Of a DNA stretch of 64,000 nucleotides, positions 954 to 59,905 are shown in pieces; the stretch's first letter is position 1; every line of letters starts with the position of its first letter. The notes below the pieces were generated by a model. That model was not told the DNA's origin and made no database searches. It saw only the letters and a program-made list of their open reading frames with translations. The translations under genes were made by a program, and so were the position numbers. Source of the DNA: Actinomycetota bacterium (GTDB lineage Bacteria > Actinomycetota > Actinomycetes > S36-B12 > UBA5976); assembly GCA_947452765.1 (NCBI GenBank), contig CANGDR010000004.1, forward strand, positions 1,225-65,224. Direction: 5' to 3'.

Positions 954-1169
954 GGGTAACCTCCCTCTTTTTAAGGGACAACACTCGTACACCGAACTTG
1001 TGACTTGCTATCAAGTCTTTTGTGTCGATCTTCGATCGAGAAGCGCGGCTCTTGAGCCGAACTTCACTACCGAGGACCGACCGATCTATTCGAATATGCG
1101 GTGTTATCCGCGGTGCCACCTCGTGGTGGCGGTATCTTGCGATCTTTAGGTTTAGAAATTTTTTGCTAA

Positions 1170-9308: not shown

Positions 9309-9419
9309 GGTCGAAACCTTTTCAATTTGGTGGAACAGTTATATGGTCATGCTACTAGTCATTCGCTAAGAACTAAAGGGTCTCAAAATCCCTAGAAATC
9401 ATTACTTCATGACAACAAT

Positions 9420-10196
9420 TTAAGTTGACACAAGAACCAGGCGAATTATGAGCGCCACTAGCATGACAACGAAAATTGCCCGCACAAAACGACTTCCTTT
9501 ATCCAAAGCTGTTCTGGCGCCGATGTATCCGCCTAGCAGATTTAGTGGAGCCATCAATATGACCACGGCCCAAAGTACATGCCCAGAAGGAACAAATATG
9601 CATAACGCGGCCAAGTTAGTAGCAACGTTCACAAATTTTGCGGTAGCAGAGGACTCTAAAAACGATGTCCCCGCAATCGCTACCAAACCAAATAGCAAGA
9701 ACATTCCAGTCCCAGGTCCGATTAAGCCATCGTAGAAACCGATTACCAAACCTAGTGCAGGTGCCGCCCACTTGGATTGAAACTTTTTAGACCTTTGAAT
9801 AGTTCCGAATTCGGGACGCGCGAGAGTAAAAATGCCCACGCAAATCAAAATAAAAATAATTATTGGCTCAAACACAGCACGATCTACTCGAGTCGCCAAC
9901 GCGGCGCCTACTATTGAGCCACCAAACGCAGTCGCCATGATCGGAAGCAACTGCTGTCCGCGTGACTGAACCTTAGTTCTATATGTGGCTGCCGCAGCAC
10001 TTGTTCCAACAATCGAAACAGCCTTATTGCTACCTAAGACACTGGCAAGTGGAGCATTTGGAAATGCAAAGAGCAATGTGGGAAGTTGAATTAAGCCACC
10101 TCCACCGGCTACCGCATCTACAAAACCTGCTGTAAAAGCTCCAACGATAAGTGAAAGAAAAGTTAGCGGCGATAAATCCGACCACAGTGCAAACAT
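9420..10196 (-). CDS. TauE/SafE family sulfite/anion exporter-like membrane protein
   Basis: 258 aa with about 8 hydrophobic Gly-rich helices. The N-terminal GFVDAVAGGGGLIQLP pattern is typical of the TauE/SafE family. Confidence 0.75.
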   Translation of the reverse strand: MFALWSDLSPLTFLSLIVGAFTAGFVDAVAGGGGLIQLPTLLFAFPNAPLASVLGSNKAVSIVGTSAAAATYRTKVQSRGQQLLPIMATAFGGSIVGAALATRVDRAVFEPIIIFILICVGIFTLARPEFGTIQRSKKFQSKWAAPALGLVIGFYDGLIGPGTGMFLLFGLVAIAGTSFLESSATAKFVNVATNLAALCIFVPSGHVLWAVVILMAPLNLLGGYIGARTALDKGSRFVRAIFVVMLVALIIRLVLVST

Positions 10197-10200
10197 TTAA

Positions 10201-10917
10201 CTAAGCGTTCCACGCAGCGACTACGTCCGCTACTTCCGCAAGACGCTGAATCGTTGCTGCTGCCGTGATACCAAGATCAGTGGATTGAGCAGCTGGGATA
10301 TTGGAATGCGGAATCCAAATCCCTTGCATTCCGATGGATTGTGCTCCATGTATATCGTCAAAAAGTCGATCTCCGACAAATGCTGCTTCAGCTGGTTCAA
10401 TATCCAAGTTATATAGAACGTCAGCAAAGACTGAGCGATGCGGTTTCCCTGAATCAGTTTCGCTTGTGAACAGCAGGTAGTCAAAAAGGTGCAAAATTCC
10501 GTCGCGTTCAAGAATTGCTTCATGGTGGTAGCGGGGCCACATTGTGTTAGACAGCACGGCTGTTTTTATTCCTAAGCCACGTAGTTTTTCAAGTAACGTA
10601 ATTGCATCCTCGTCAGCGTAGGTGTGCGGATCCCAGCCAGATAAATAATTTTGTAGTGCTTTTTGGTGCAGAGGAGAAGACGTATCTACTCCGACTTCTT
10701 GAAACAGTTCCTCGAGTACGCCAGTTCCTACTTCACCTGCGGTATCAAACTGGTGTGCCCAGCGTGTCGCCTCGCCCAGATCCAACTTTTCAGCAAGTTC
10801 TCGCGCATTATCTGGATCGTAGATCTGTGTGTAACCCATCCAGAGTTCGGTTAGATCGACATTGTGCCAGGGAGTTAATGTTCCGCCCCAGTCGAAAACA
10901 ACCGCCTTGATTGTCAT
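10201..10917 (-). CDS. HAD-superfamily hydrolase
   Basis: 238 aa. Motif I VVFDWGGTL, a later SNT motif, and VGDRLFDDIHGA (motif IV). Confidence 0.8.
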   Translation of the reverse strand: MTIKAVVFDWGGTLTPWHNVDLTELWMGYTQIYDPDNARELAEKLDLGEATRWAHQFDTAGEVGTGVLEELFQEVGVDTSSPLHQKALQNYLSGWDPHTYADEDAITLLEKLRGLGIKTAVLSNTMWPRYHHEAILERDGILHLFDYLLFTSETDSGKPHRSVFADVLYNLDIEPAEAAFVGDRLFDDIHGAQSIGMQGIWIPHSNIPAAQSTDLGITAAATIQRLAEVADVVAAWNA

Positions 10918-10919
10918 CG

Positions 10920-12686
10920 CTAAATCTTTACTTCAGCGATGACTTCGGATACAAACTGATCGATTGGAATTAAGCTCTGTTCGCCGGATCGTCGATCACG
11001 AAGTTCGATGACACCATCACTTAGGCCCTTGCCAACAACTGCGATGGTCGGGATACCTAACAGCTCAGAGTCATTGAATTTCACGCCAGGTGAGACTCCC
11101 CTGCGATCGTCATATAGGACTCGAACGCCCTGGGCCTCTAAATCTGTTGCTGCGCGTTCGGCAAATTCAAAGATTGCATCATCTTTGCCTGCTGCGATTA
11201 TGTGAATGTCTGCTGGCGAAACTTCCCTCGGCCAGATCAAACCTTTCTCATCGTGGGATTGCTCCGCAACAGTCGCCACCGCCCGAGTAACGCCAATTCC
11301 ATACGAACCCATAGTCACTGTTATGAGTTCGCCATTTTCGTCAAGCACTTTTAGGTCCAGCGCTTCTGCGTACTTGCGACCAAGTTGGAAAATGTGTCCA
11401 ATTTCAATACCGCGTGCAATCTGCAGTTCGCTGCCGCACTCGGAGCACTCGTCACCTTGCCGGACTTCAGCAGCTTCGATAATCCCATCCCAATTAAAGT
11501 CGCGACCTGCCACTAAGTCGTATATGTGATTACCTCGCTTGTTGGCGCCTGTAATCCATCGCGTTCCGACGACCACTCTTGGATCAACTAGGTAACGAAT
11601 CCCAGACTCGGATTTTTCGCCAAGTACCTGTGGGCCGATGTAGCCCTTGACTAGTACTGGGTACTTTTTGAAATCTTCTTCCTCAAAAGCTTCGATAGCC
11701 ATTGGATGCAGCGCAGCTTCAACCCGTTTCAAATCAACTTCACGGTCACCAGGCAAGCCAATGATTAGCGGCGTTCGAGTGCCGTCTAGCGCAACCTGCA
11801 TGACGACAACATTTTTTAGAGTGTCGCTTGCTTGCCAATCTCGATCCGTGCGTCGTAATTCTGTTCTTGCATTTGAAATATCAACTAATGATGCAATCGT
11901 CGGTGTATCAGGAGTGTCTTCGACATGTGCTGCTGGCGTACTTGACACATCAACCTCTGGTGGGACGCGAGTAACGATTGCTTCCACATTGGCAGCCATC
12001 CCACATGTAGGACACTTCACATAAGTATCTTCACCGTATTCGCTAATTGCTAAAAACTCCTCGCTTTTCGAACCGCCCATTGCCCCTGACATCGCAGAAA
12101 CAATTTCGTAATTCAATCCCAACCGATCAAATGTAGAAATATATGCTTCTCGCTGTATTTGATATGACTTCTCGAGACCTTCGTCATCAATGTCAAAGGA
12201 ATATGCATCCTTCATCACGAATTCACGCGCACGAAGTATGCCAGCGCGTGGTCGCGCTTCATCGCGATACTTAATTTGGATGTGATAAATATTTAATGGC
12301 AAATCTTTGTAAGACGAGTACTCGCCCTTAACCATGAGAGTAAACATTTCCTCATGCGTTGGGCCAAGCAGGTAATCTGCTTTCTTGCGGTCCTGGAGGC
12401 GAAATAAGTTATCGCCGTATTCTTCCCAGCGGCCGGTCTTCTCATACGGTTCACGCGGCAACAATGCTGGAAAGTGAACTTCCTGAGAACCAGCCCGATT
12501 CATTTCTTCACGAACGATTTGTTCAATATTTCGATAGACCAAATATCCAAGTGGAAGCCAGGACCAAATTCCTGGGGCTACCCTTCGGACATAGCCACCG
12601 CGAACTAGCAGTCGATGACTAGGCACCTCGGCATCAGCAGGATCCTCGCGCAAAGTGCGAAGGAAGAGGCTAGACATGCGTAACAC
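10920..12686 (-). CDS. proS: proline--tRNA ligase (bacterial type with insertion/editing domain)
   Basis: 588 aa. Class II motif [28 protein letters not shown]-terminal anticodon-binding domain. Confidence 0.96.
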
Positions 12687-18824: not shown

Positions 18825-18944
18825 AAGTCCTTACGGTACGCCTCATTAAGGCATCTGCCAAAGTCGGACCCGCCTAATTATGGCTGGCTTCCCTTACACC
18901 CACTCAACTGTGGCCTGCTAGCGAAATAGGTCTACCATTACTCC

Positions 18945-20297
18945 ATGACTGCAAATACTGACCATGAAATGTTTAACGGCCTCGTCCAAGAGCGTCGCCT
19001 AGTAACCGCGATTCCTGGGCCAAAATCTCAGGCCCTCCAGGCTCGACGCACTGCCGCGATTAGCGCAGGTGTGGGTGCCACACTTCCTATCTTTATCACC
19101 AAAGCCGCCGGAGGCGTTGTAGTTGACGTTGATGGCAACTCTCTCATTGATATGGGTTCAGGAATTGCAGTAACCAGTGTTGGTAATTCGAACAAAGAAG
19201 TTGTCGATCGAGTAGTTGAGCAAGTCAATAACTTCACGCACACCTGCTTCATGGTGACGCAATATGAAGGTTACGTTGAGGTCTGCGAAGCTTTGAATCG
19301 CCTAACACCAGGCGATCACGAGAAGCGTTCTGCACTATTCAATACCGGTGCAGAAGCTGTAGAAAACGCAGTGAAAATCGCACGTGTTTATACCAAGCGC
19401 CAAGCAGTCGTCGTTTTCGAACACGGTTACCACGGCCGAACAAACTTGACGATGGCCATGACTGCAAAAGTTGCACCTTACAAGCAGGGCTTTGGACCAT
19501 TTGCTCCCGAGGTTTATCGCATGCCGCTTTCCTACCCATCACATGATGGTCTTAGCGGTGCAGAAGCAGCAGCACATGCAATCAGTCGCATGAACAAGGA
19601 AATTGGCGCAGAAAATATTGCGGCAATCGTAATTGAACCAATTCAAGGTGAAGGTGGATTTATCGTTCCGGCCGAAGGCTTCCTGCCTGCTTTGGTTAAG
19701 TACTCGAACGACAGCGGAATCGTATTCGTCGCCGATGAAGTTCAAACTGGTTTTTGTCGAACCGGAAATTGGTTCGCATCCGAACACGAAGGCATCATTC
19801 CTGACTTAATTACAACTGCCAAAGGTATTGCCGGCGGTTTGCCACTTTCTGCAGTCACTGGCCGAGCTGAAATCATGGATTCAGTTCATGCTGGTGGCTT
19901 AGGCGGAACTTACGGCGGTAATCCTGTGGCATGTGCTGCAGCATTGGGCTCGATCGCAGCTATGGAGGCTGAGGATCTAAATGCTAAGGCAGTGCGAATT
20001 GAAGAAATTATGAAACCTCGACTGGCGCAGATTGCTGCTGATACCGGTGTCATTTCTGACATTCGGGGTCGTGGCGCCATGATCGCGGTTGAAATCATGA
20101 AAAAGGGCACCGACGAACCAGATGCTGAGATGACCAACAAGATTGCCAAAGCCTGTCATGCAAACGGTGTCGTCGTATTAACAGCTGGAACTTACGGCAA
20201 CGTACTTCGTTTCTTGCCGCCTTTGGTAATGCCGGAACATTTACTCGAAGATGCGCTAACCATCATCGAACAACAATTCAAAGAAGCTACTGCTTAA
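18945..20297 (+). CDS. gabT: 4-aminobutyrate--2-oxoglutarate aminotransferase (class III PLP aminotransferase)
   Basis: 450 aa. DEVQTGFCRTG and PLP-lysine region TTAKGIAGGLPL. The overall pattern is typical of GabT. Confidence 0.9.
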   Translation: MTANTDHEMFNGLVQERRLVTAIPGPKSQALQARRTAAISAGVGATLPIFITKAAGGVVVDVDGNSLIDMGSGIAVTSVGNSNKEVVDRVVEQVNNFTHTCFMVTQYEGYVEVCEALNRLTPGDHEKRSALFNTGAEAVENAVKIARVYTKRQAVVVFEHGYHGRTNLTMAMTAKVAPYKQGFGPFAPEVYRMPLSYPSHDGLSGAEAAAHAISRMNKEIGAENIAAIVIEPIQGEGGFIVPAEGFLPALVKYSNDSGIVFVADEVQTGFCRTGNWFASEHEGIIPDLITTAKGIAGGLPLSAVTGRAEIMDSVHAGGLGGTYGGNPVACAAALGSIAAMEAEDLNAKAVRIEEIMKPRLAQIAADTGVISDIRGRGAMIAVEIMKKGTDEPDAEMTNKIAKACHANGVVVLTAGTYGNVLRFLPPLVMPEHLLEDALTIIEQQFKEATA

Positions 20298-20314: not shown

Positions 20315-20827
20315 ATGTCCGACCAGCACGAGCATGCTTCGGTTCGTCGAGTTCGTGCTGCGCTCGAATCTGCGGGAATAGCCACGGACATAAAGCACCT
20401 TGATGAAAGTGCGGGTACCGCGGTACTTGCTGCTGCCGCTCTTGGTGTTGAGGTTGGTCAGATCGCATCTTCTATCGTTTTTAAGGTTTCAACTCCCGAA
20501 GGCGACCGTCCAGTTCTCGTAGTAACTTCAGGCCGCCACCGCGTGGATACGAATTTGGTCGCGGACACCGCGGGTTTGCCAAAACTTGGTCGAGCTGATG
20601 CCGACTTTGTGCGGGAATGGAGTGGCTTTGCTATTGGTGGCGTGAGTCCCGTTGGCTGGATTCACGCAGGAGAATCGTTTAAGCCGATCACAATAGTTGA
20701 TACCGCGCTTGCGGACTACCAGGTTATTTGGGCCGCATGTGGGTTACACGATGTCGTGTGCAGTATGACCTTCGATGATGTCGTTGGCGTTACTGGCGGC
20801 ACTCCACTTGCCGCCGCGATTGACTAG
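20315..20827 (+). CDS. YbaK/EbsC-type aminoacyl-tRNA deacylase domain protein
   Basis: 170 aa. Size and the FAIGGVSPVG motif fit the free-standing YbaK/ProX trans-editing family. Confidence 0.7.
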   Translation: MSDQHEHASVRRVRAALESAGIATDIKHLDESAGTAVLAAAALGVEVGQIASSIVFKVSTPEGDRPVLVVTSGRHRVDTNLVADTAGLPKLGRADADFVREWSGFAIGGVSPVGWIHAGESFKPITIVDTALADYQVIWAACGLHDVVCSMTFDDVVGVTGGTPLAAAID

Positions 20828-20831: not shown

Positions 20832-21527
20832 ATGTCCGATCCAATAGTCAGACTTGATGTCTTTCAAGTAAGGACTGCAAATATTCCAAAAGCCATTTTG
20901 CTAATGGGAACCCAGCGCCGGGTGTTAAGAAAAAACCCTGACATCAAGTTCTGGAAATTGCTTGGAACTGGCTCCGGCAAAACGTTTACATCTCGAGATG
21001 CCGATCTCCATCATTGGGCTGTCCTCACGGTTTGGGATCAGGAAATCGGTGCTGAAAATTTCGGAGACTCAGTTGCAATTGGTAGTTGGGAGAAGATACA
21101 GAATGAGCATTGTTACCTCATCATGTCTGCACTATCCGCAAGAGGAACGTGGGCAAAAGCCAAGCCTTTCGGTGACCCAGTTCCAGCTAAATGGGCGGGT
21201 ACGACTGCGGCTCTAACTAGGGCTGCCATTAAGCCAAAATTTTGGCGTGAGTTTTGGCGAAGCGTGCCTCCGGTATCAGCTGACTTGAATCAAACCCCGG
21301 GACTGATTACAAGTTTAGGAATTGGTGAAGCACCCGTTGGATTACAAGGAACCTTTAGTATTTGGCGAGATAACGAGAGCATTACGCAATTTGCATCTAA
21401 GCAAGCGCCCCATCAGGCGGTTATAAAGAGGACGCATGAGACTGGTTGGTATTCCGAAGAGTTATTTGCCAGATTCAAAGTTATAAAATCTCACGGATCT
21501 TTCAACGGGATAGATTTATCTTCGTAA
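20832..21527 (+). CDS. CrtA-family (spheroidene monooxygenase-like) carotenoid oxygenase
   Basis: 231 aa from ATG 20832; the ORF-track start at 20775 would overlap ybaK. FWKLLGTGSG..FT, LTRAAIKPKFWREFWRSVP, QGTFSIWRD and WYSEELFARF follow the conserved blocks I recall from Rhodobacter CrtA. Confidence 0.7.
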   Translation: MSDPIVRLDVFQVRTANIPKAILLMGTQRRVLRKNPDIKFWKLLGTGSGKTFTSRDADLHHWAVLTVWDQEIGAENFGDSVAIGSWEKIQNEHCYLIMSALSARGTWAKAKPFGDPVPAKWAGTTAALTRAAIKPKFWREFWRSVPPVSADLNQTPGLITSLGIGEAPVGLQGTFSIWRDNESITQFASKQAPHQAVIKRTHETGWYSEELFARFKVIKSHGSFNGIDLSS

Positions 21528-22312
21528 TGAGACTGAGCAAAATTGGCTATCCCCTTTCGATGCTTGCTGCACTTTTGACGATATTGCTCAACATAATTTG
21601 GACCCTCGTTTCTGGGTCTAGTCGTGATTTTGTGACGATTGCCGGAGTTTTGATGTTCGCCCTTGCTTCGACATTGCATGCCTACACCAGATTTGGATCG
21701 CAGTTTGCAATTAGATTGCTCGCTACTGTGCTGCCACTTACTTTGGCGATCGAAATCCTCGGAGTATCAACAGGATTTCCATTTGGCGAATACAAATACG
21801 ATATGTTGCGCCTAGGTCCTACAGCAGCGGGCGTTCCATTCTTGATTCCATTCGCCTGGATGATGATGATTTATCCAGCTTCATTAGTCGCGCGAGAATT
21901 TAAGCAAAGGCCACTGCTAACTGTTTTTATTGGTGGATTACTTATGGCCACTTGGGATCTATTTCTAGATCCACAAATGGTCAACGAAGGATACTGGACC
22001 TGGTTTAGCGCCGGCAGTCCGGTAAGTGAAATCCCAATTAGTAATTTTCTGGGCTGGTTTACTGCGGCCAGTTTCGTATTGTGGCTTACCTCAAAAACTA
22101 TTCCGGAAAACTTATGGCTCAGCAAACAACCTAGCTCTTACGTTGCGCAAGCCCCCTATGTGTCGATCATGTGGGTTTGGCTAGGTAGCTTCTTGGCAAA
22201 TATCGTTCCAATTAGTCCGTTCTTAGCTCAGCCACTCGTTGCGATTCAAGGTTTTGTGGGGATGGGATTCGTTCTTATCCCGTGGTCGAGGCAACGATGG
22301 TCAGCTCGCTAA
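21527..22312 (+). CDS. cruF: carotenoid biosynthesis membrane protein of the CruF family (carotenoid 1,2-hydratase type)
   Basis: 261 aa from ATG 21527 (TAATG overlap with the upstream gene). Polytopic membrane protein with GFPFGEYKY and DLFLDPQMV..GYWTW blocks characteristic of the Caroten_synth/CruF family. Confidence 0.75.
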   Translation: MRLSKIGYPLSMLAALLTILLNIIWTLVSGSSRDFVTIAGVLMFALASTLHAYTRFGSQFAIRLLATVLPLTLAIEILGVSTGFPFGEYKYDMLRLGPTAAGVPFLIPFAWMMMIYPASLVAREFKQRPLLTVFIGGLLMATWDLFLDPQMVNEGYWTWFSAGSPVSEIPISNFLGWFTAASFVLWLTSKTIPENLWLSKQPSSYVAQAPYVSIMWVWLGSFLANIVPISPFLAQPLVAIQGFVGMGFVLIPWSRQRWSAR

Positions 22313-23397
22313 TTCTAATTGCCACAGTAATAACTTGGCTGCTCACATTACATTCAATACTGAACCAGAGATTCTTAATTTCGGAGCCACCTGAAGTAGT
22401 TTCTGATTCGATAGCGATTCTGATACCTGCACGGAACGAAGAATTAGTCATCGGTGGCGCGGTCAGTGCTGCGCTAGGTCAAGGATTGCTAACAAATTTT
22501 CGCGTCTATGTACTTGACGACGACTCCACCGATGGCACTGCGCATGAATTAACGCATATATCGAGTGCGAACTTAACGGTTATTTCTAGCAAGGTTGAGC
22601 CGCCAAGTGGTTGGCTTGGTAAGCCGTTTGCCTGTCACAGATTGGCACAAAGTGCCGATGCAAAATATTTAGTTTTCCTTGATTCAGATGTGACCCTTGG
22701 CCCCTCTGCGATCGCAAGTGCAATCAAGGCTATGCAGAAATACGATCTGAAGCTGGTCAGTCCCTATCCCAAGCAAATTGCTAACGGTTTACTTAATCGT
22801 TTTATCCAACCGCTTTTGCAATGGTCATGGCTCACCACGGTGCCACTAAGCTTTGCGCGACGATCGAAGCGCCCTAGTTTGGCAGTTGCTAACGGACAGT
22901 TCTTAATTTGTGATGCGGCTGCATATAGATCTGTTGGAGGACACGAGGCGATTAAAAGTGAAGTGTTCGATGACATTGAACTATTGCGCCTATTCCTGCG
23001 GGCTGGGTTGGCAGGCACAGTGATTGACGGCACTGAACTGGCAACTTGTCACATGTATCGAACTAATCAGGAATTGGTATCTGGTTACGCCAAAAGTCTC
23101 TGGCAAGCATTCGGGGGCTGGATGGGCTCGGTGGCAACCCTAGGTTTTCTTAGTTTTGTTTACATTTTTCCGTTGATCGGCTTCAGCACTGGCCAGATCA
23201 GATTGGCTACATTCGCCTACTTAGGTGGCGTTATCGGCCGAGCATTCTGTGCCCAAAAAACAAAAAGTCGGATACTTCCCGATGCGCTGGGACATCCGAT
23301 TTCAGTTGCGTTATTTGTATGGCTAAATGTCGTCTCGTGGCAACGGCACTTGCGAGGAACAATCACCTGGAAAGACCGCAACATAAACGTGTCCTAA
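22297..23397 (+). CDS. family 2 glycosyltransferase of the carotenoid CrtQ/CruC type
   Basis: N-terminal TM helix, then ILIPARNEE, VLDDDSTDGT, GWLGKPFAC and FLDSDV (DxD), with C-terminal TM helices ending in TWKDR. This is the same architecture as staphyloxanthin CrtQ. ATG 22297 has GAGG 5 nt upstream; GTG 22282 is the alternative start. Confidence 0.75.
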   Translation: MVSSLILIATVITWLLTLHSILNQRFLISEPPEVVSDSIAILIPARNEELVIGGAVSAALGQGLLTNFRVYVLDDDSTDGTAHELTHISSANLTVISSKVEPPSGWLGKPFACHRLAQSADAKYLVFLDSDVTLGPSAIASAIKAMQKYDLKLVSPYPKQIANGLLNRFIQPLLQWSWLTTVPLSFARRSKRPSLAVANGQFLICDAAAYRSVGGHEAIKSEVFDDIELLRLFLRAGLAGTVIDGTELATCHMYRTNQELVSGYAKSLWQAFGGWMGSVATLGFLSFVYIFPLIGFSTGQIRLATFAYLGGVIGRAFCAQKTKSRILPDALGHPISVALFVWLNVVSWQRHLRGTITWKDRNINVS

Positions 23398-23406
23398 GGT
23401 GAAGTT

Positions 23407-24900
23407 GTGGCAAAAGTATTGGTTATCGGGTCAGGCATGGGTGGCATGGCATGTGCCGCTCGATTAGCTAGCAAGGGTCATCGCGTTACTGTCGTTGAAC
23501 AGAGCGACACCTGGGGCGGGAAACTTGGCTTAGTACGCCACGGCGAACATGTCTTTGATACGGGACCAAGTTTGTTCACTCTGCCAGCTGTGTATCGCGA
23601 TCTATTTTTAAAAACAGGCGCACCGCTAGAAGATTCAATCGAGATGGTCGACCTAGAAACCGCATTCAGGTATCAATTTTCGGATGGCACGGTTCTGAAA
23701 ATGCCTGGGGTAGGTATTGGTAAGTGTGCCGACGCGATTGGCGATTGCCTGGGTGGAGATAGTGCCGATCAATGGCGCTCATTTATGAAGCGCGCAGCTG
23801 ACGTATGGGCAGTAACGCGAAAGCCATTCCTGGAATCAGAACTAAACGGTATGAAAAGTTTGTTGTCGATGGCTTGGCGGGTTAACGATATAAAAACAAT
23901 TGCACCATTTGCGACGTTACGAGAAATTACTGAAAAATATATTTCTGATCCGCGTTTAATAACTCTGGTTGATCGTTACGCAACTTACACCGGCTCAGAT
24001 CCACGCAAAGCTCCCGCAGCTCTTGCCACGGTTCCCTATATTGAACAAATGTTCGGCGCGTACCACATATCCGGTGGCGTACGTGAACTTGGTCGTGCGC
24101 TATTTGAACGTTGTGAAAAATTAGGTATTGAATTTAGGTTCAACACGTCGATAGAAAATATTTCAGCGACAAGTCGAGTCCACGGTGCGACAAGCTCAAA
24201 TGGTGAATTTTTCGCAGCTGACATCGTTGTAGCAAATGCTGACGCAGCAAATGTCTACGAGCATTTGTTGCCAAAATCTTCAGCAACAAAATCGGCTCGC
24301 AATTCACTTGCCAAATCAACTCCATCGCTTTCAGGATTTGTTTTGCTGTTTGCGCTTTCGGGAACTACACCTGGGCTCGAACACCACAATGTTTACTTCC
24401 CTGCTGACTACGAGAACGAATTTGATTCAGTATTTGGTTTTGCTGGACCTAAAAGGCCCGTTCAAGATCCAACCGTTTATATCTGCGCTCCCAAAGATTC
24501 AAAAATGTCGCCGACAGGTACCGAATCTTGGTTTACGCTCATCAATGCTCCCCGTCACGAACCTGATTCTGGTGTTGACTGGAATGATTCGACCCTGATT
24601 TCAAGTTACCGCAACCATGTCATCGGGACACTTGGTAGGCGAGGATTGAATTTTGAAGAACGAATCAGTTGGGAGCAAGTAATCACTCCAGCCGACCTTG
24701 AGACTCGCACCTACGCTCCAGGTGGATCTATCTACGGAACGTCCAGCAACGGCGTGCGTTCGGCGTTTCTCCGGCCACAAAACGTGACCGCAATTGAAAA
24801 CTTGTATCTGGTCGGCGGATCTTCACATCCGGGTGGCGGACTTCCGCTAGTTGGAATGTCGGCTGAGATCGTGGCTAACCACATTGGAAGGGCTAGTTAG
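23407..24900 (+). CDS. phytoene-desaturase-family FAD oxidoreductase, CrtD-like (carotenoid 3,4-desaturase by context)
   Basis: 497 aa. Rossmann motif VIGSGMGGMACAARLASKGHRVTVVEQSDTWGGK; C-terminal LYLVGGSSHPGGGLP. It is the second CrtI-family gene in the window. The specific reaction is inferred from neighbours only. Confidence 0.75.
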   Translation: MAKVLVIGSGMGGMACAARLASKGHRVTVVEQSDTWGGKLGLVRHGEHVFDTGPSLFTLPAVYRDLFLKTGAPLEDSIEMVDLETAFRYQFSDGTVLKMPGVGIGKCADAIGDCLGGDSADQWRSFMKRAADVWAVTRKPFLESELNGMKSLLSMAWRVNDIKTIAPFATLREITEKYISDPRLITLVDRYATYTGSDPRKAPAALATVPYIEQMFGAYHISGGVRELGRALFERCEKLGIEFRFNTSIENISATSRVHGATSSNGEFFAADIVVANADAANVYEHLLPKSSATKSARNSLAKSTPSLSGFVLLFALSGTTPGLEHHNVYFPADYENEFDSVFGFAGPKRPVQDPTVYICAPKDSKMSPTGTESWFTLINAPRHEPDSGVDWNDSTLISSYRNHVIGTLGRRGLNFEERISWEQVITPADLETRTYAPGGSIYGTSSNGVRSAFLRPQNVTAIENLYLVGGSSHPGGGLPLVGMSAEIVANHIGRAS

Positions 24901-25537
24901 CGCGCAAAACTTTTCTGAAGTGCCAGAAAAGTTGCCCGACACCGATAACTCCAACTACTAGCCAAGCCAAGCCTGCCAAAGTCGTCCACACGTCTGAATC
25001 GAATGGTGAAATAGCGGCCAGCAACATGCCAACGAAACCCAAAATTACTCGAACTGGTTTTTCGGCAACACTTATCAGGCCAACTTCCAAGTAGCCAACA
25101 CCTTGAGCGCGGGCTCGCATATATTCGTGAACCAAGGCAACGGTGACGGCAAGTGCAATGACCAAGGCATTCGCACCAGCTGCAATTAGCACTACTCCGA
25201 TCAAAACGTCGGTTACGCGATCTGCCATTGCGTCAAGGTAAGCGCCCCACTGGGTAACTCGGTTAGTCCGAACTGCAACTATGCCATCAATGTTGTCCAG
25301 TAATCCCACCAACAAAATGGCGGCAGCGCCAGCTAGGTACCACTTCGAACTTGTCGCAACCCCTGCTACGACAACCAAGAGGATCAATATGGGAGTTGCT
25401 GTGATTGCATTTGGAGTTAACCGCAGGAATGGCGTAGACACCCAGAATGCTAATTTTAGCCAAGTCCGAACAAGCCAGCTCGGTTGCGCGCCGCCGTGTA
25501 GCACCTGCCACTGCGCTAAGTAGGACTCAAATGTCAT
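24893..25537 (-). CDS. CDP-alcohol phosphatidyltransferase family protein
   Basis: 214 aa membrane protein. DNIDGIVAVRTNRVTQWGAYLDAMAD fits D-G-x2-A-R-x8-G-x3-D-x3-D, except that the conserved Arg is displaced or replaced. Confidence 0.8.
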   Translation of the reverse strand: MTFESYLAQWQVLHGGAQPSWLVRTWLKLAFWVSTPFLRLTPNAITATPILILLVVVAGVATSSKWYLAGAAAILLVGLLDNIDGIVAVRTNRVTQWGAYLDAMADRVTDVLIGVVLIAAGANALVIALAVTVALVHEYMRARAQGVGYLEVGLISVAEKPVRVILGFVGMLLAAISPFDSDVWTTLAGLAWLVVGVIGVGQLFWHFRKVLRAN

Positions 25538-25628: not shown

Positions 25629-26696
25629 GTGAAACAAAATCCACTAGACACTATGGACTTGCGAAATCGAGTTGCCACAGTTCTGACGACCTTTGTTTCC
25701 AGTCATAGGCTGGATATGGAGCAAATTTCAGTGGATACCCTGCCGTTGGTGGATTCCTTGGCTGAGTTACTTGAAGGTGGAAAGCGACTTCGCCCTGCCT
25801 TTGCATATTGGGGCTATCGCGCAGCAGGTGGGAGCGATACTTCGGAAGTAGTTTCGGCGTGCGCCAGTCTCGAATTTCTTCAGGCTTGCGCATTGATACA
25901 CGACGACGTGATGGACGCCAGCGACACTCGGCGTGGAAAGCCCGCCGCTCACAAACAGTTTGAGAATTTACACGTACGAAATCAATGGTCTGGATCTAGC
26001 GTTGACTTTGGAATTGGTTCGGCCATCCTGATTGGTGACCTAGCGCTTTCTTGGGCGGATGAACTTCTGTTAACTAGCGGCCTAGACAACGAGCAAATTG
26101 CGAGGGCAAAAAAGATTTACGACGAAATGCGTACCGAACTAATGGCAGGTCAGTACTTAGATTTGCTTGAACAAGTACGCGGAAACATAACGGTAGAACG
26201 GGCAGCAACCGTAATTAAATATAAAAGTGCCAAGTACACGATTGAGCGACCATTGTTAATGGGGGCTGCGATTGCTGGATCTTCAGAAAGTATTTCCAAA
26301 GCACTGAGTGATTATGGCTTGGCCCTTGGCGAAGCCTTCCAACTTCGCGATGATGTCCTTGGAGTATTTGGCGATCAGGCTACTACTGGGAAACCTGCGG
26401 GTGACGATCTGCGCGAAGGCAAGCAAACTATGTTGGTTGCCCATGCATTCAGCTTGGCAACCACTCCACAATTAGCGCTGTTAAATTCCAGTCTTGGTGA
26501 TGCTGAACTATCAGCTGAATCGATCGAACAATTACAGCAGATGTTGATCACATGTGGATCTCTTGACCTAGTTGAAAAACAGATTTCAGAGAAAACAATG
26601 GCTGCAACAAATGCAATAGAAGTAATTGATATTCCAGATGAGGCGCGTTTTGCTTTGCACGAACTTGCAATTATGGCTACGAGAAGGGCTTCATAA
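25629..26696 (+). CDS. crtE: polyprenyl (geranylgeranyl) diphosphate synthase
   Basis: 355 aa. First and second Asp-rich motifs LIHDDVMDASD and FQLRDDVLG. Positional equivalent of idsA2 (Rv2173). Confidence 0.9.
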   Translation: MKQNPLDTMDLRNRVATVLTTFVSSHRLDMEQISVDTLPLVDSLAELLEGGKRLRPAFAYWGYRAAGGSDTSEVVSACASLEFLQACALIHDDVMDASDTRRGKPAAHKQFENLHVRNQWSGSSVDFGIGSAILIGDLALSWADELLLTSGLDNEQIARAKKIYDEMRTELMAGQYLDLLEQVRGNITVERAATVIKYKSAKYTIERPLLMGAAIAGSSESISKALSDYGLALGEAFQLRDDVLGVFGDQATTGKPAGDDLREGKQTMLVAHAFSLATTPQLALLNSSLGDAELSAESIEQLQQMLITCGSLDLVEKQISEKTMAATNAIEVIDIPDEARFALHELAIMATRRAS

Positions 26697-26709: not shown

Positions 26710-28230
26710 ATGCGCTGGTTACCAGGCACGCAACGAACTGTTTCGGGAAAGACGGACGATGTGGTTATCGTCGGTGCCGGCCTAGCAGGACTTTCTGCTG
26801 CCATGCGCCTTGCCGGTGCTGGACGCAAAGTAACAGTGGTTGAACGCGAGAGTATTCCCGGTGGACGAGCCGGCCGCATTAGCGATCGTGGATTTGAATT
26901 CGATACCGGACCAACAGTTCTGACAATGCCTGACCTAATCGCTGATGCATTCGATTGTCTCGGTGAAGACATGACCCAGTGGCTCACATTGGATCCTGTC
27001 GCTCCGCTTTATCGTGCTTTCTATCACGATGAGAGCGTGCTAAACGTGCATGCTGATACAAATCAAATGGCTCAAGAAATAGAAAGTGTCATTGGACCTG
27101 GAGAAGCCGCGGGCTACTTAAAGTACGTCGATTTTGTTACCGATTTATATAAGTACGAAATGAAAAGTTTTATCGATCGCAATATTGATTCCCCACTTGA
27201 TCTAATTTCTACTGATTTATTAAAGCTAATTAAATTAGGTGGATTTCGAAAATTAGCGCCTAAAGTGAGTGAGTACTTAAAGGATCCGCGCACTCAGCGA
27301 ATTTACTCATTCCAGTCCATGTATGCCGGGCTTTCACCTTATGACGCGCTAGCAATTTATGCCGTCATCGCGTACATGGATTCAGTTGCAGGAGTTTTTG
27401 CGCCAAAAGGTGGGATGCATGCGCTACCGCAGGCTATGGCATCCGCAGCTGCAAAGCACGGAGTCAAATTCCAATACAACACTGAAGTAACAAAGGTCCG
27501 CATGTCAGGCTCACGTGCAACTGGAGTGGAAACTAGTTCTGGAGAATTCATACCAGCTGACGTAGTTGTGCTTAATCCAGATCTACCCGTCGCCTATCGC
27601 GACCTTCTTGGAGTTCAACCTTGGAGTGTCAAGCGACTTAAGTATTCGCCATCTTGCTATTTAATGCTTGCTGGCTCCTCGATTAAGTACGACCATATCG
27701 CTCATCACAACATTCATTTTGGTGAAAGTTGGTCCGGTGTATTTGATGAACTAATAGATCAAAAAGTACTTATGACAGATCCAAGTGTTTTAGTCACTAA
27801 TCCCACTTTTAGTGATCCAAGTTTGGCTCCGAATGGTAAGCAGGTTTATTACGTACTCTTCCCAACACCAAATCTTGACGCCGATATCGACTGGAAGCTA
27901 ACTGGACCAAGGTATCGCGAGCAAGTAATTTCCACACTCGAAGCCAGGGGCTATACGGGCTTTGGGGATGCCATTGAAGTTGAGCACATAACTACGCCGC
28001 AAGATTGGGCAGATCGGGGCATGGAGCGAGGTGCCCCGTTTGCAGCTGCTCATTCATTTCTGCAGACCGGACCATTCCGGCCCGGCAATATGTATGGGGA
28101 CAACGTTATTTTCACTGGATCCGGAACTCAACCGGGCGTTGGCGTTCCTATGGTTTTAGTTTCTGGGCGACTGGCTGCCGAGAGAATAACTGGACCAGAT
28201 AAAAATTACCGCTCACGCGCCCAGCGCTAA
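26710..28230 (+). CDS. crtI: phytoene desaturase
   Basis: About 506 aa from ATG 26710; the ORF-track start at 26626 would overlap crtE. DVVIVGAGLAGLSAAMRLAGAGRKVTVVERESIPGGRAG at the N-terminus and IFTGSGTQPGVGVPMV at the C-terminus. Confidence 0.88.
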   Translation: MRWLPGTQRTVSGKTDDVVIVGAGLAGLSAAMRLAGAGRKVTVVERESIPGGRAGRISDRGFEFDTGPTVLTMPDLIADAFDCLGEDMTQWLTLDPVAPLYRAFYHDESVLNVHADTNQMAQEIESVIGPGEAAGYLKYVDFVTDLYKYEMKSFIDRNIDSPLDLISTDLLKLIKLGGFRKLAPKVSEYLKDPRTQRIYSFQSMYAGLSPYDALAIYAVIAYMDSVAGVFAPKGGMHALPQAMASAAAKHGVKFQYNTEVTKVRMSGSRATGVETSSGEFIPADVVVLNPDLPVAYRDLLGVQPWSVKRLKYSPSCYLMLAGSSIKYDHIAHHNIHFGESWSGVFDELIDQKVLMTDPSVLVTNPTFSDPSLAPNGKQVYYVLFPTPNLDADIDWKLTGPRYREQVISTLEARGYTGFGDAIEVEHITTPQDWADRGMERGAPFAAAHSFLQTGPFRPGNMYGDNVIFTGSGTQPGVGVPMVLVSGRLAAERITGPDKNYRSRAQR

Positions 28231-28277: not shown

Positions 28278-29834
28278 ATGCAGACCAAAATCGCTGGAGC
28301 AAGCTACCGAAATTGGTTTACTACCGACTTTGGCTGGTTTGGTCAGTATGCGCTTCCAGGATTCGTGGGCTCGCTACTCATGACGGTCGGTGCGCTAGGC
28401 GTGGGCTGGTTTCCCCTCTCCATTAATATTCTGCAATGGAACGTAATTGAATTCCTACAAACTCAAACTTTTGGACTTGCACTAACTAGATCTTTCGTTG
28501 TCGTCGGTGCTGCGCTTCTACTGCAAGCCTGGTTAGTAGTTGGCGTGGACGCATTGCACGAGAAAATATCTGAAACTGGCACCTTGCTGGTAACTTTTTT
28601 TGTTTGGTGCCTGCCAATACTTTTTGCTCCGCCATTATTTAGCCGCGATGTCTATTCGTATTACATGCAAGGACGGATGCAGCTTGCTGGGTTCAACCCA
28701 TACAACTCCGGAGTTGCTGTGCTCGACGGATGGTTCAAGAGCGGCGTTGATCCGCTCTGGGGCGACTCGCCTACCCCGTATGGACCCGCATTCTTACTAA
28801 TTGAACGAATCGTTGCCTACCTATCGGGCGAATCAGCAATGTTAGCCGCCTACTTATTTCGCTTTGCTTCGCTAGGTGGCGTAATTCTGATGTGTTATTA
28901 CATTCCGAAGCTAGCTCGCCAGCATGGCGTTAATCCAGTCACTGCACTATGGCTTGGCGTGATGAATCCACTCGTCATTATGCACTTCATAGCAGGCGCA
29001 CATAATGATGCCTTGATGGTCGGCTTACTTTGCATGGCACTTTCTCTTTCGATTGATCGCAAGTTTTTGTTTGCCATTTTGATTGCCACTTTTGCACTTG
29101 CTATTAAGCCAGTGGCTATTGTTGCATTGCCGTTTATTGCTCTCACTGCGGCCGGAGCTGGGGCTAGTTGGAAAGTTAGAATTCGGTTTGGTGCAATTGC
29201 GGCAACAAGCTCTTTCCTAACCCTTTTTGCGCTTTCCTTTGTCGCTGGCACAGGTCCATTCGGCTGGCTGGCTTCGCTGTCTACGCCTGGAACTGTAAAG
29301 AGTTGGATTTCACCAACTACTGCTGCGGGAATGATTATCGGCGGCCCAATTCGCTTCCTTGGATTTGGAAACCATGTTGATACTGCCATTGCTATCACTC
29401 GCGCGATTGGTTCAGTCGTCCTGCTCATTGTTCTTATCTACTTGATTGCTAAACCTGAAGGCAGAAGTGGTGCACGTGGAACTGCACTTTCGTTAGCCGC
29501 CTTAGTAATTCTCGGTCCGGTTGTCCAGCCGTGGTACCTCCTTTGGTCAATTCCGTTACTAGCTGCAACTGGCTTAACACATCGCCAGGTACGCATCCTG
29601 GTGCTATTGCTGGCTGCGTTTACTGTGCATGCAATAGCTAATTCAAGTGCGACTGCCGACACATTTCTTGAGTTAAGCGATGGCATAGCAATGCTGCTAG
29701 CTGCAGTCACACTTGGCTTTGCGGTAATCGCGTCACCTTCGGAACGAAAGTTAATTTTGGGTGACGAATATGAAATCGACATGCTTCCTAGGTCGCTAGA
29801 CGAACAAGCTAGCGCCGACGCAGTTCAGCTCTAG
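28278..29834 (+). CDS. polyprenol-phosphate-mannose-dependent alpha-(1-6)-mannosyltransferase, MptA/MptB family (GT-C)
   Basis: 518 aa polytopic protein. FSRDVYSYYMQGR...NPY and DSPTPYGPAFLL blocks are typical of MptA/MptB. Positional equivalent of Rv2174. Confidence 0.75.
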   Translation: MQTKIAGASYRNWFTTDFGWFGQYALPGFVGSLLMTVGALGVGWFPLSINILQWNVIEFLQTQTFGLALTRSFVVVGAALLLQAWLVVGVDALHEKISETGTLLVTFFVWCLPILFAPPLFSRDVYSYYMQGRMQLAGFNPYNSGVAVLDGWFKSGVDPLWGDSPTPYGPAFLLIERIVAYLSGESAMLAAYLFRFASLGGVILMCYYIPKLARQHGVNPVTALWLGVMNPLVIMHFIAGAHNDALMVGLLCMALSLSIDRKFLFAILIATFALAIKPVAIVALPFIALTAAGAGASWKVRIRFGAIAATSSFLTLFALSFVAGTGPFGWLASLSTPGTVKSWISPTTAAGMIIGGPIRFLGFGNHVDTAIAITRAIGSVVLLIVLIYLIAKPEGRSGARGTALSLAALVILGPVVQPWYLLWSIPLLAATGLTHRQVRILVLLLAAFTVHAIANSSATADTFLELSDGIAMLLAAVTLGFAVIASPSERKLILGDEYEIDMLPRSLDEQASADAVQL

Positions 29835-30281: not shown

Positions 30282-30403
30282 GAAACACCTTTCGAGTTGA
30301 GTTGCTAGTGATTCTCACTTTACGCGGTGTGCAAGTAGTTATCGAATCTGCGATCGCCCTCCCGCCCGTGCAGGCTACGGCCAAGTTGCATAGGGTTACT
30401 TTT

Positions 30404-31312
30404 GTGTCCACGCGAGATCTTGATGCTGCCGGTATCACGGAACCAGAACTCAGAGCTTCCTACGAGCTTTGTCGACAGCTAAATGCCAAACATGGCAAGA
30501 CGTATTATTTGGCCACCTTACTTTTGCCCCCGGCTAAACGGCCCTATGTACACGCACTTTATGGATTTGCTAGATATGCGGATGAAATAGTGGATGACTT
30601 AGCATCTACTTTGTCTGACGCCCAGAAAGCGCAAGCCCTAAGCGACTGGGGTCAGGCATTTCTTGATCAGTTCGAATCGGGATCTACTTCTGATCCGGTG
30701 TGCAAGGCAGTCCTTGATACCGTTCGCCGATGGAACATTCCAAAGCAACACTTTGAAGCTTTTCTGCATTCGATGACAATGGATTTAACAATTACTGAAT
30801 ATCAAACGTTTGATGATCTTTATGAATATGTTTATGGCTCGGCTGCCGTAATCGGCTTACAGATGGTACCAATCCTTGATCCTACAAATGAGTTGGCGTA
30901 TGTACATGCCACTGAATTGGGAATCGCATTCCAATTAGCCAATTTTATTCGCGATGTTGGTGAAGATTTGGACCGTGGACGCGTTTATTTGCCTTTAGCG
31001 GAGCTTGCTGACTTTGGCGTAAGTCGAAGTGATCTTGAGAAACGAATAGCTACCCCCGCGGTAAAAGCTGCACTAAAATTTCAGATCGCTCGAGTGCGAG
31101 AGCTAGAAGAAAAATCACGAGCTGGAATCGCCATGCTTGGAATATCCTCTCAGCCATGCATCGAGACTGCCCGAATTCTCTACTGCGGAATTGTGGATGC
31201 GGTCGAAAGTATTGACTATGAGGTATTCGATCGAAGGGCAAGCGTTTCGCTCCCGCGGAGGCTTCAAGTTGCTATTCCAGCGTGGTGGCGTGCCCGTAAA
31301 CTCTGGCGCTAA
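30404..31312 (+). CDS. crtB: phytoene synthase
   Basis: Squalene/phytoene synthase signatures YGFARYADEIVDD and ANFIRDVGEDLDRGRVYLP. I prefer GTG 30404 (VSTRDLDAAGITEPELRASY matches typical actinobacterial N-termini). The maximal ORF from TTG 30302 would leave only 20 nt to the divergent gene. Confidence 0.9.
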   Translation: MSTRDLDAAGITEPELRASYELCRQLNAKHGKTYYLATLLLPPAKRPYVHALYGFARYADEIVDDLASTLSDAQKAQALSDWGQAFLDQFESGSTSDPVCKAVLDTVRRWNIPKQHFEAFLHSMTMDLTITEYQTFDDLYEYVYGSAAVIGLQMVPILDPTNELAYVHATELGIAFQLANFIRDVGEDLDRGRVYLPLAELADFGVSRSDLEKRIATPAVKAALKFQIARVRELEEKSRAGIAMLGISSQPCIETARILYCGIVDAVESIDYEVFDRRASVSLPRRLQVAIPAWWRARKLWR

Positions 31313-31705
31313 TTAATCGAAAAATTTTGCAACCTTACTATGTGGCGGGCCAGATCTGGGCTCGCGCTGGATTCCTAATCCTCCGAGCCAAACCCAGGTT
31401 ACAAGTGTTAGCAACACCAAACTAAAGCCAAAAAAGAGATCTTCAACTGGAGCAAATGCAATCCGACCATCGCCCAAGAAAGCCGGTGCGCGATCAAGTG
31501 GCGTGGAACTTCCGAGAATTGCTTTGCCGTTGTAACGTACAATTCGAAATCCAGTCAAGATGCCATTAGAAACCAATTGGAAAATGATGATGATTGCGTA
31601 AGAGGTCCAGAAAACTTTACGTCGGAGCAACATCGTTCGGAAAATAACTAGATCGAAAATAATTGCAATAATTACGGCCGAAATACTTAGCTGGGTGTAG
31701 GTCAT
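31313..31705 (-). CDS. crtYd: lycopene cyclase domain protein, second subunit of the heterodimeric lycopene beta-cyclase
   Basis: 130 aa, about 3 TM helices, PxE(E/D) motif as FAPVEDLFFGF. ATGA overlap with the upstream subunit gene. Confidence 0.8.
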   Translation of the reverse strand: MTYTQLSISAVIIAIIFDLVIFRTMLLRRKVFWTSYAIIIIFQLVSNGILTGFRIVRYNGKAILGSSTPLDRAPAFLGDGRIAFAPVEDLFFGFSLVLLTLVTWVWLGGLGIQREPRSGPPHSKVAKFFD

Positions 31706-32040
31706 CCTTCAGATCCCTCGTCGCCAACAACCCATCCCTTGGCACTTCGAACTGCCTCCAAAGTGAGTATCGAACAGATTGGAATCACAATAAAAAAGAA
31801 TATTTCCTCTATCGGGATGCCGGAATATGCAATCCACCCCGTCACAAAATGCGTGTCAAAGGTCCAATGGCCCGCCGCGATTGCATAGGAATCCCACATC
31901 GAAAAAATTATCAAAACCGGCAAAATCGCAAGACTAAGGCGAATCACTCGGCGATAGACCCGAGTGCGAAGCAGAAACTCCAGCCAAGCTGTGCCCAAAA
32001 GACAAACTAATAGAACTCCGAAGTATGAGTACTGTGCCAT
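31702..32040 (-). CDS. crtYc: lycopene cyclase domain protein, first subunit of the heterodimeric lycopene beta-cyclase
   Basis: 112 aa, 3 TM helices, motif GIPIEEIFFFIVIP. Confidence 0.8.
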   Translation of the reverse strand: MAQYSYFGVLLVCLLGTAWLEFLLRTRVYRRVIRLSLAILPVLIIFSMWDSYAIAAGHWTFDTHFVTGWIAYSGIPIEEIFFFIVIPICSILTLEAVRSAKGWVVGDEGSEG

Positions 32041-58770: not shown

Positions 58771-58960
58771 AGAACCCTGTGCTACAGTCGCATCACCGTG
58801 TTACCAGCGAAGTTCGGTGAAATTCCGACGCTGTCCCGCAACTGTGAAGTGATTTTCGGATCATAAGTCAGGTCGCCTGGGAACGTGGTTTTCGTTAAAA
58901 CTCTCGAGGAAGAGTTCGCCGAACCACACTTTGTGTGTTCCGTCGGATAATTTTTCGACC
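58771..58960 (+). ncRNA. cobalamin (B12) riboswitch
   Basis: The core GAAGTTCGGTGAAATTCCGACGCTGTCCCGCAACTGTGAAG matches the GGTGAAATTCC...CCCGCAACTGT consensus. B12-box-like AAGTCAGGTCGCCTGGGAAC follows downstream. Located directly 5' of a btuF-like gene. Boundaries are approximate. Confidence 0.85.
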
Positions 58961-59903: not shown

Positions 59904-59905
59904 TC

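Follow-up and report, generated by a model that had tools for sequence, protein, structure and literature searches.

What carotenoid end group is encoded by four tightly packed genes of an uncultured freshwater actinobacterium of low GC, and is the encoded pathway a new one? The genes lie at positions 20832-24900 of a 64-kb stretch of contig CANGDR010000004.1 (hereafter the window; Actinomycetota bacterium, assembly GCA_947452765.1), whose sequence recurs unchanged in several metagenome assemblies and in the metagenome-assembled genome (MAG) GCA_947450265.1. Gene structure, family membership and conserved gene order make it probable that they form an operon which tailors the psi-end of a carotenoid into a non-acylated glycoside of the deoxymyxol/phleixanthophyll type, i.e., a minimal form of the already-predicted actinoxanthin system. 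As determined from an open reading frame (ORF) listing and base-level reading of the window, the string consists of four co-directional genes that overlap or nearly touch:

20832-21527, forward strand: crtA-like gene (231 aa), predicted haem-type CrtA-family carotenoid C-2(') oxygenase
21527-22312, forward strand: cruF (261 aa), predicted membrane carotenoid 1',2'-hydratase
22297-23397, forward strand: GT2 gene (366 aa), predicted CruG/CruC/HpnB-like carotenoid glycosyltransferase
23407-24900, forward strand: crtD (497 aa), predicted CrtI-family 1'-hydroxycarotenoid 3',4'-desaturase

The junctions described in the initial annotation, which had been made from the sequence alone, were reproduced base by base: crtA and cruF share a TAATG at 21525-21529 (1-nt overlap), the cruF stop (22310-22312) and the GT2 ATG (22297) overlap by 16 nt, and the GT2 stop (23395-23397) is separated by 9 nt from the crtD GTG at 23407, which is preceded by AAGGTGA; the crtD stop is at 24898-24900. 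Moreover, all eight peptide blocks quoted there (FWKLLGTGSG, LTRAAIKPKFWREFW, QGTFSIWRD, WYSEELFARF, GFPFGEYKY, IPARNEE, DDDSTDGT and FLDSDV) are in the translations. For crtA, the N-termini of homologues favoured ATG 20832 over a longer ORF from 20775. For crtD, GTG 23407 is a better start than that of the public call on identical contigs (487 aa): the former retains the N-terminal FAD-binding GxGxxG (VLVIGSGMGG, residues 4-13), while the latter begins 30 nt further downstream, at 23437, inside this motif. A promoter and terminator scan of the string gave nothing over shuffled expectation, and the operon structure therefore rests on overlaps and synteny.

The CrtA-like protein gave a full-length match to the NCBIfam spheroidene monooxygenase model NF045923 (E=6e-54, 4-225 of the 226 model positions), as expected from its initial assignment to the CrtA-family oxygenases, and was 35-37% identical over ~97% of its length to CrtA of roseobacter photosynthesis gene clusters; the Pfam search of this protein returned no match. 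In an alignment of 11 sequences from actinobacteria, Deinococcus and purple bacteria, all 35 invariant residues were kept in the CrtA-like protein, and His194, the sole invariant histidine, is a candidate haem ligand. A PDB sequence search with the CrtA profile gave nothing significant (top match IsdI, E=0.36). At the structural level, the AlphaFold model (pLDDT 80, pTM 0.81) is a tandem ferredoxin-like/ABM repeat, and the closest PDB structures were anthrone-oxidase-like monooxygenases, PenE and the haem enzyme aldoxime dehydratase (TM ~0.6). The modelled fold agrees with published work in which CrtA was found to be a non-P450 monooxygenase with a 5-coordinate haem which uses O2 and reduced ferredoxin; its ketolase mechanism is a repeated hydroxylation, and CrtA-OH hydroxylates once (PMC10604819).

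The second protein, proposed to be a CruF-type membrane hydratase, matched Pfam PF04240 (Caroten_synth, residues 41-232) with E=4e-38 and 132 bits (cutoff 25), which supports the proposal, and it has the multiple hydrophobic segments of a polytopic membrane protein. Thus the profile searches placed both the 231-aa and the 261-aa protein in the families claimed for them and not in unrelated ones. The GT2 protein matched PF00535 (Glycos_transf_2; E=2e-14, 54 bits) and carries the acidic DXD-type motifs DDDSTDGT and FLDSDV with membrane segments on both sides (an N-terminal transmembrane segment at 4-22, a cytoplasmic catalytic domain at ~37-270 and C-terminal hydrophobic segment(s) from 278). 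The GT2 family and motifs claimed for it were therefore recovered, but the claimed CrtQ type was not: no CrtQ-type model matched, and the best specific models were HpnB (95 bits, cutoff 379) followed by the CruG 2'-O-glycosyltransferase NF045692 (78 bits), so a CruG/HpnB-like description is the better one. Its acceptor is predicted from gene context only.

The claim of a second CrtI-family desaturase also stood, as the CrtD protein scored 336 bits on crtI_fam TIGR02734 (cutoff 238). On the CrtD models it reached 351 and 303 bits (NF045637, E=9e-105), and on the CrtO ketolase model just 49 bits; for comparison, the CrtI protein of the window reached 499 bits on crtI_fam and, on these two CrtD models, 256 and 206 bits. 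The profile scores place the CrtD protein nearer to CrtD than either the CrtO ketolase or the window's CrtI would be, which argues against the CrtO alternative left open in the 2018 paper on the acI operon discussed below.

What would these four enzymes act on? Downstream of them, family models bore out the general carotenoid genes of the initial annotation:

25629-26696, forward strand: crtE/idsA-type polyprenyl diphosphate synthase for geranylgeranyl diphosphate (GGPP) supply (polyprenyl_synt; NF042416 336 bits and GGPP synthase models, under equivalog cutoffs)
26710-28230, forward strand: crtI phytoene desaturase (crtI_fam 499 bits, over cutoff)
30302-31312, forward strand: crtB phytoene synthase (SQS_PSY; CrtB NF045686 204 bits, under equivalog cutoff)
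31313-31705, reverse strand: crtYd, lycopene cyclase domain TIGR03462, several hydrophobic segments, convergent on crtB
31702-32040, reverse strand: crtYc, lycopene cyclase domain TIGR03462, several hydrophobic segments, forming a heterodimeric cyclase with crtYd

The TIGR03462 scores of the crtYd/crtYc pair were 35.5 and 71.9 bits. With these genes the proposed route would run as follows: i) crtE, crtB and crtI would provide lycopene; ii) CrtYc/Yd would close one ring to give gamma-carotene; iii) CruF would hydrate the 1',2' bond of the open end, leaving a 1'-OH; iv) CrtD would add the 3',4' double bond, giving 1'-hydroxytorulene; v) the haem-type CrtA homologue would oxygenate C-2', most likely by a single hydroxylation to deoxymyxol (plectaniaxanthin); and vi) the membrane GT2 would put a sugar on the 1'- or the 2'-hydroxyl. 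This order is proposed because the reconstituted enzymes of Nonlabens spongiae act so: in E. coli, flavobacterial CrtY and CruF gave 1'-OH-gamma-carotene, addition of CrtD gave 1'-hydroxytorulene, and further addition of CrtA-OH gave deoxymyxol (PMC11855829). The 1'-hydroxy-2'-oxygenated-3',4'-didehydro glycoside that had been proposed for this locus is thus supported by both the family matches and the N. spongiae reconstitution. If the sugar were a hexose, the end product would be of ~730 Da, and attachment at O-1' would make it phleixanthophyll.

Among window ORFs of at least 150 aa, the scope of all window-wide negatives here, no Bac_rhodopsin, blh, CrtZ/W/O or P450 was found, in agreement with the earlier observation that ring hydroxylase, ring ketolase, opsin and blh are missing from the window. 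Similarly, no alpha/beta-hydrolase was found between the ybaK-like gene upstream and crtA or among the scanned ORFs, and neither squalene-hopene cyclase nor other hpn genes were found in the window. Since there is no ring hydroxylase or ketolase nearby and no alpha/beta-hydrolase (the putative acyltransferase), a non-acylated glycoside would be expected.

Does the string behave as a unit in other genomes? A scan of one genome per species gave 584 CrtA relatives, and the loci of the best 80 of these 584 were compared; 64 species loci, in which the sequence extended 5 kb or more past crtA, were informative. Genes for CruF, GT2 and CrtD were present in 45 of the 64, and in every one of the 45 the order crtA>cruF>GT2>crtD was colinear on one strand. 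The carriers were Nanopelagicales-labelled MAGs, the high-GC Kineosporiaceae, Kineococcus, Nocardioides, Quadrisphaera and Motilibacteraceae, and one Acidimicrobiia MAG, and the nearest species loci were those of low-GC freshwater MAGs labelled Nanopelagicales (CrtA 62-65% identical). Linkage of crtYc/Yd to the cluster was conserved in several lineages. In Nonomuraea gerenzanensis (NZ_LT559118.1, 6.28-6.30 Mb) the genes stand in the order cruF-crtD-GT2-crtA with crtB/crtI/crtE adjoining on the opposite strand, and this reshuffling argues for functional association rather than mere inherited order. On this ground the four genes are regarded as a functional module.

The window copy is the minimal four-gene form of this module, lacking both an alpha/beta-hydrolase and a DUF4126 gene. 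An Abhydrolase_6 gene stands directly 5' of crtA in 13 loci (the acI-type loci L062/L080 at ~9181-9992, L040 at 1025-1912, and 10 others) and is absent from the window and its closest relatives (L005-L013), while a DUF4126 membrane protein gene, absent in the window, lies between crtA and cruF in ~8 high-GC loci (e.g., L039 at 10703-11308). Furthermore, crtA occurs without cruF, GT2 and crtD within 10 kb in eleven Geodermatophilus/Blastococcus loci and likewise in a Frankiales-labelled MAG. In that MAG and at six further MAG loci, whose names include neither Geodermatophilus nor Blastococcus, crtA stands beside another CrtI-family oxidoreductase (~536 aa), which suggests a different use of CrtA there.

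Homologues of CrtA that bear the name 'spheroidene monooxygenase' occur widely among Streptosporangiales, and the best 120 matches of a search with the Nonomuraea CrtA protein were all from this order, with no Mycolicibacterium or Actinoplanes among them. The 11.85-Mb chromosome of N. gerenzanensis is filed as a 'plasmid' in PLSDB and is nearly unannotated. A further CrtA homologue (40% identity, annotated hypothetical) is carried at 117961-118746 of the 386-kb plasmid p_TS293_5 of Deinococcus taeanensis, where its neighbours are PAS/response-regulator genes and carotenoid genes are lacking.

Several lines of evidence weigh against the proposed function: i) all four proteins score under the equivalog cutoffs, namely CrtA-like 183 bits on NF045923 (cutoff 300), CruF 105 of 155 on TIGR03460, 71 of 400 on NF045693 and 57 of 300 on NF041333, GT2 far below with 78 of 600 on the CruG model, and CrtD 351 of 580 and 303 of 500; thus, from profile scores, exact substrate and regiochemistry cannot be transferred, and the enzyme roles in this actinobacterial clade are predicted ones; ii) CrtA homologues may hydroxylate once or twice, and the sequence does not tell which; iii) CrtYc/Yd would have to stop at one ring; iv) other parts of the genome may code for an acyltransferase, a ring hydroxylase or a ring ketolase. 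Membership of the CrtA-like protein in its family is clear from the NF045923 score, from which functional equivalence to the Rhodobacter ketolase does not follow.

The genes bordering the module raise the question of whether the functional unit is larger:

18945-20297, forward strand: gabT, 4-aminobutyrate transaminase (NF004714 765 bits, over cutoff), first of the co-directional string
20315-20827, forward strand: ybaK/ProX-like gene, free-standing aminoacyl-tRNA editing domain, 4 nt 5' of crtA
24893-25537, reverse strand: CDP-alcohol phosphatidyltransferase paralog (PF01066 47 bits; AIP/PIP synthase models under cutoff)

The gaps of 17 nt between gabT (stop 20295-20297) and the ybaK-like gene (ATG 20315) and of 4 nt between the latter (stop 20825-20827) and crtA (ATG 20832) are as initially given. 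The operon may start behind the divergent gap of 120 nt (18825-18944) that precedes gabT, and the ybaK-like gene is probably co-transcribed with crtA, although it may be just co-transcribed housekeeping. Its product matched PF04073 (tRNA_edit, 63 bits), with TTHA1699, a putative trans-editing enzyme, as the closest structure. The gabT-ybaK-crtA order is kept in the closest relatives; more broadly, ybaK on the forward strand occurs within 6 kb 5' of crtA in 22 of 40 loci and is directly adjacent (<100 bp) in 11 distant loci, including genomes of ~75% GC, and in other lineages an alpha/beta-hydrolase gene stands between the two. On the other side of the module, the CDP-alcohol phosphatidyltransferase gene is convergent with crtD, their 3' ends overlapping by 8 nt; of 42 loci, 34 have it on the opposite strand no more than 6 kb from crtD. 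In Nocardioides sp. 1609 it comes after crtB-crtI and shares their strand. In its signature DGxxAR...G...D...D, the Arg is replaced by V/I/A/S in all 37 orthologues and is kept in distant homologues.

Two more features separate crtI from crtB, and the genes around them are those of a core actinobacterial region:

28278-29834: MptB/MptA-like GT-C mannosyltransferase gene (TIGR03459, formerly 'carotene biosynthesis associated membrane protein', 'crt_membr')
between the GT-C gene and crtB, ending by 30281, reverse strand: ORF147, a 147-aa ORF with no family match

Beyond crtYd/crtYc are genes for a PknB-type kinase and a class II DAHP synthase. The series idsA - mptA-like - small reverse ORF - pknL-like Ser/Thr kinase - class II DAHP synthase (aroG) has the order of the conserved M. 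tuberculosis core region Rv2173-Rv2178c. Thus the GT-C gene and ORF147 probably stand between crtI and crtB as part of core synteny, and they were rejected as pathway members on the ground that their order matches this ancient arrangement. At 23 distant loci, crtE is preceded by metF. Otherwise the window holds core actinobacterial housekeeping genes (ribF, truB, infB, nusA, proS, ispG, rseP, dxr, qcrCAB, ctaCDE and others). A horizontally acquired island was also considered and rejected, as GC is flat (~0.48) across the region and the flanks are core genes. Elsewhere in the window were an Actino-pnp RNA motif (1024-1081, reverse strand, 61.6 bits), by which the DNA is confirmed to be actinobacterial; an AdoCbl riboswitch (58782-58921, forward strand) followed by a periplasmic-binding-protein/FecCD/ABC-ATPase operon (58977-61713), probably for cobalamin uptake; a 164-aa ORF (36697-37191, forward strand) that matches just a short part of the FGGY_N kinase domain and may be a truncated gene; and a 398-aa ORF (39805-41001, forward strand) with no Pfam match.

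Could the same genes yield a different product? The CrtA homologue could be a 2'-ketolase that hydroxylates twice with loss of water, so that the product would be a 2'-keto-3',4'-didehydro compound with a 1'-glycosyloxy or 1'-hydroxy group and any sugar on O-1'. The sole NCBIfam match of the protein is indeed the purple-bacterial ketolase, to whose photosynthesis-cluster members it is 35-37% identical, residues invariant between ketolases and actinobacterial proteins are all shared, and the ketolase mechanism merely repeats the hydroxylation (PMC10604819). We nevertheless consider a ketolase unlikely, albeit with an appreciable chance, because 183 bits fall short of the equivalog cutoff of 300, the known actinobacterial carotenoids with this end group have a 2'-OH and not a 2'-keto group (phleixanthophyll, PMC5884252), and the characterised homologue in a non-phototroph with CruF and CrtD is the hydroxylase CrtA-OH (PMC11855829). 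A further alternative, also raised in the initial annotation, is that the module acts on both ends of lycopene to form an acyclic oscillol-type 1,1'-dihydroxy-2,2'-oxygenated tetradehydro diglycoside, in which case the cyclase would work for the retinal branch alone; this alternative is in keeping with the hydration of both lycopene ends by CruF when no cyclase is present (PMC11855829) and with the independent action of purple-bacterial CrtA, CrtC and CrtD on each end (PMC10604819). It appears quite unlikely, as crtYc/Yd are in the same neighbourhood by a linkage conserved in several lineages, cyclase and CruF together give mainly monocyclic 1'-OH-gamma-carotene (PMC11855829), and the known actinobacterial relatives of this chemistry are monocyclic (PMC5884252). 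That the genes serve a non-carotenoid isoprenoid, such as a hopanoid or other polyprenoid, is suggested by HpnB as the top NCBIfam match of GT2 (95 bits); we assign this a nearly negligible probability, given a score far under the cutoff of 379, a window free of squalene-hopene cyclase and hpn genes, and a GT2 gene that lies between cruF and crtD and is followed by crtE/I/B/Y. A monocyclic glycoside with a single 2'-hydroxylation is therefore the preferred reading of the product.

As to what such a glycoside would be for, photoprotection or a membrane role stands beside a role as rhodopsin antenna. That it is mainly a light-harvesting antenna on actinorhodopsin, like salinixanthin on xanthorhodopsin, is in our judgment rather unlikely and, as the initial annotation had stated, a matter of speculation. 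Actinorhodopsin is encoded by all cultured Nanopelagicales (PMC12817590), the acI actinorhodopsin (ActR) has the glycine 'fenestration' residue (10.1101/367102), and ActR of 'Ca. Aquiluna' IMCC13023 binds a native carotenoid of undefined structure with faster initial pumping (PMC8113403). On the other hand, opsin and blh are absent from the 64-kb window and from the few kb recovered past one of its ends, where exact look-ups of two edge proteins gave no record for one and just short contigs with housekeeping genes for the other; the characterised antennae depend on a 4-keto ring (Balashov 2010, by secondary citation; 10.1101/367102), for which the cluster has no ketolase (CrtD scored just 49 bits against CrtO); and many soil actinomycetes carry the module, so that an ActR antenna cannot be its general role. 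The functional unit may also be larger than four genes, such that synthesis or modification of the carotenoid (e.g., to an ester or phospho-alcohol) would involve the variant CDP-alcohol phosphatidyltransferase, the YbaK-like protein or both; we give this a low probability. The transferase gene stays with the module through rearrangements (near crtD in 34 of 42 loci, and after crtB-crtI on the same strand in Nocardioides), its clade-specific DGxxAV motif suggests a changed substrate, and ybaK immediately precedes crtA in 11 distant lineages. Against this, the transferase gene is convergent here and hence on a separate transcript, no phosphorylated or aminoacylated carotenoid is known, and the literature search found no paper tying CDP-alcohol phosphatidyltransferases to carotenoid clusters; the YbaK-like protein appears, from its translation read by eye, to keep the usual editing-domain motifs and could serve a streamlined genome as a housekeeping deacylase; around the Nonomuraea module, tblastn (E<=1e-5) detected neither of the two genes; and much of the region is ancient conserved actinobacterial synteny. 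We see a slim chance that the carotenoid glycoside is a substrate of the variant transferase (DGxxAV...G...D...D), of the YbaK-like esterase-fold protein or of both, giving an undescribed phospho-alcohol or ester carotenoid lipid, which would then occur in highly abundant freshwater bacterioplankton and many soil actinomycetes.

The four-gene tailoring operon matters on several counts, although in terms of concept this copy contributes little. From none of the actinobacteria that carry such an operon has the product been isolated, and an antenna role for actinorhodopsin in dominant freshwater bacterioplankton has been proposed for it. The tightly coupled form found here, the smallest among the loci compared, is a handy construct for heterologous expression. 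Phleixanthophyll-type pigments have been described since the 1960s, still with no genes assigned to them, and the wide colinear spread of the module could plausibly supply their genetic basis.

How does the operon compare with known systems? The purple-bacterial spheroidenone/ketospirilloxanthin branch (CrtC-CrtD-CrtF-CrtA) shares 1-hydroxylation, 3,4-desaturation and C-2 oxygenation with the proposed route, by homologous CrtA and CrtD. It differs in that its hydratase CrtC is unrelated, its 1-OH receives a methyl group (by CrtF) instead of a sugar, its substrates are acyclic, and CrtA is a ketolase within a photosynthesis gene cluster. The cyanobacterial myxol 2'-glycoside pathway (CruF and CruG, Synechococcus PCC 7002) likewise has a CruF-family hydratase and a CruG-related membrane GT2 and leads to a glycoside of a 1',2'-dioxygenated 3',4'-didehydro end group, but the window proteins score far under the cyanobacterial equivalog cutoffs (71 of 400 and 78 of 600). 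We know of no CrtA homologue that supplies the 2'-OH in cyanobacteria. The salinixanthin pathway (Salinibacter/Rhodothermus; CrtO, CruC, CruD) similarly ends in a monocyclic carotenoid with a 1'-glycosyloxy-2'-hydroxy-3',4'-didehydro end and a possible rhodopsin antenna function. In contrast to the window, which has neither CrtO nor CruD, this pathway makes a 4-keto ring by CrtO and acylates the sugar by CruD; Rhodothermus has no recognisable CruF, CrtD or CrtA homologues (PMC5822342).

Closer still in its reactions is the flavobacterial myxol pathway (Flavobacterium P99-3, Nonlabens spongiae; PMC11855829), in which CruF, CrtD and a CrtA homologue act in turn on the psi-end of gamma-carotene and whose intermediate deoxymyxol is the aglycone expected here. 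That pathway has CrtZ (3-OH, to myxol), a CrtY-type cyclase and no clustered glycosyltransferase, whereas the window has CrtYc/Yd and a GT2. As for the product, which the initial annotation had set apart from both myxol and salinixanthin, there is precedent: with its unsubstituted beta-ring it would be a phleixanthophyll/deoxymyxol glycoside as in Mycobacterium phlei and Nocardia (PMC5884252). Phleixanthophyll and its palmitate are made by actinobacteria (Mycobacterium phlei, Nocardia and, unpublished, Actinoplanes; PMC5884252; PMC11425705), and its unsubstituted beta-ring, 1'-O, 2'-OH and 3',4'-ene are what the window gene set would produce if the sugar were on O-1'.

The pathway inference is not new either, as the same operon and pathway have been published for acI. 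This 'actinoxanthin' operon, first noted by Ghylin et al. 2014, was described by Dwulit-Smith et al. 2018 (10.1101/367102; AEM 84:e01678-18) as (acyltransferase)-crtA-cruF-cruG-crtD upstream of crtE-crtI-crtB, predicted to yield a gamma-carotene-derived glycoside ester; metatranscriptomics showed transcription as a unit, the product was discussed as an ActR antenna or photoprotectant, and it is chemically unverified (10.1101/367102). The differences are these: the acI operon is 'most often' headed by a putative acyltransferase, in whose position the window has the YbaK-like gene; the window has the MptB-like GT-C gene and ORF147 between crtI and crtB; and CrtA of the acI-type loci L062/L080 is just 45-46% identical to that of the window. 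The published acI 'acyltransferase / CoA methyl esterase' is probably the Abhydrolase_6 gene of L062/L080 (GC 43%). The window operon is therefore not a discovery, but a further and minimal example of a published, biochemically unverified operon type. In both, crtA-cruF-GT-crtD are contiguous on one strand before crtE-crtI-crtB, with crtYc/Yd convergent on crtB, and in both the same gamma-carotene-derived hydroxylated glycoside is proposed.

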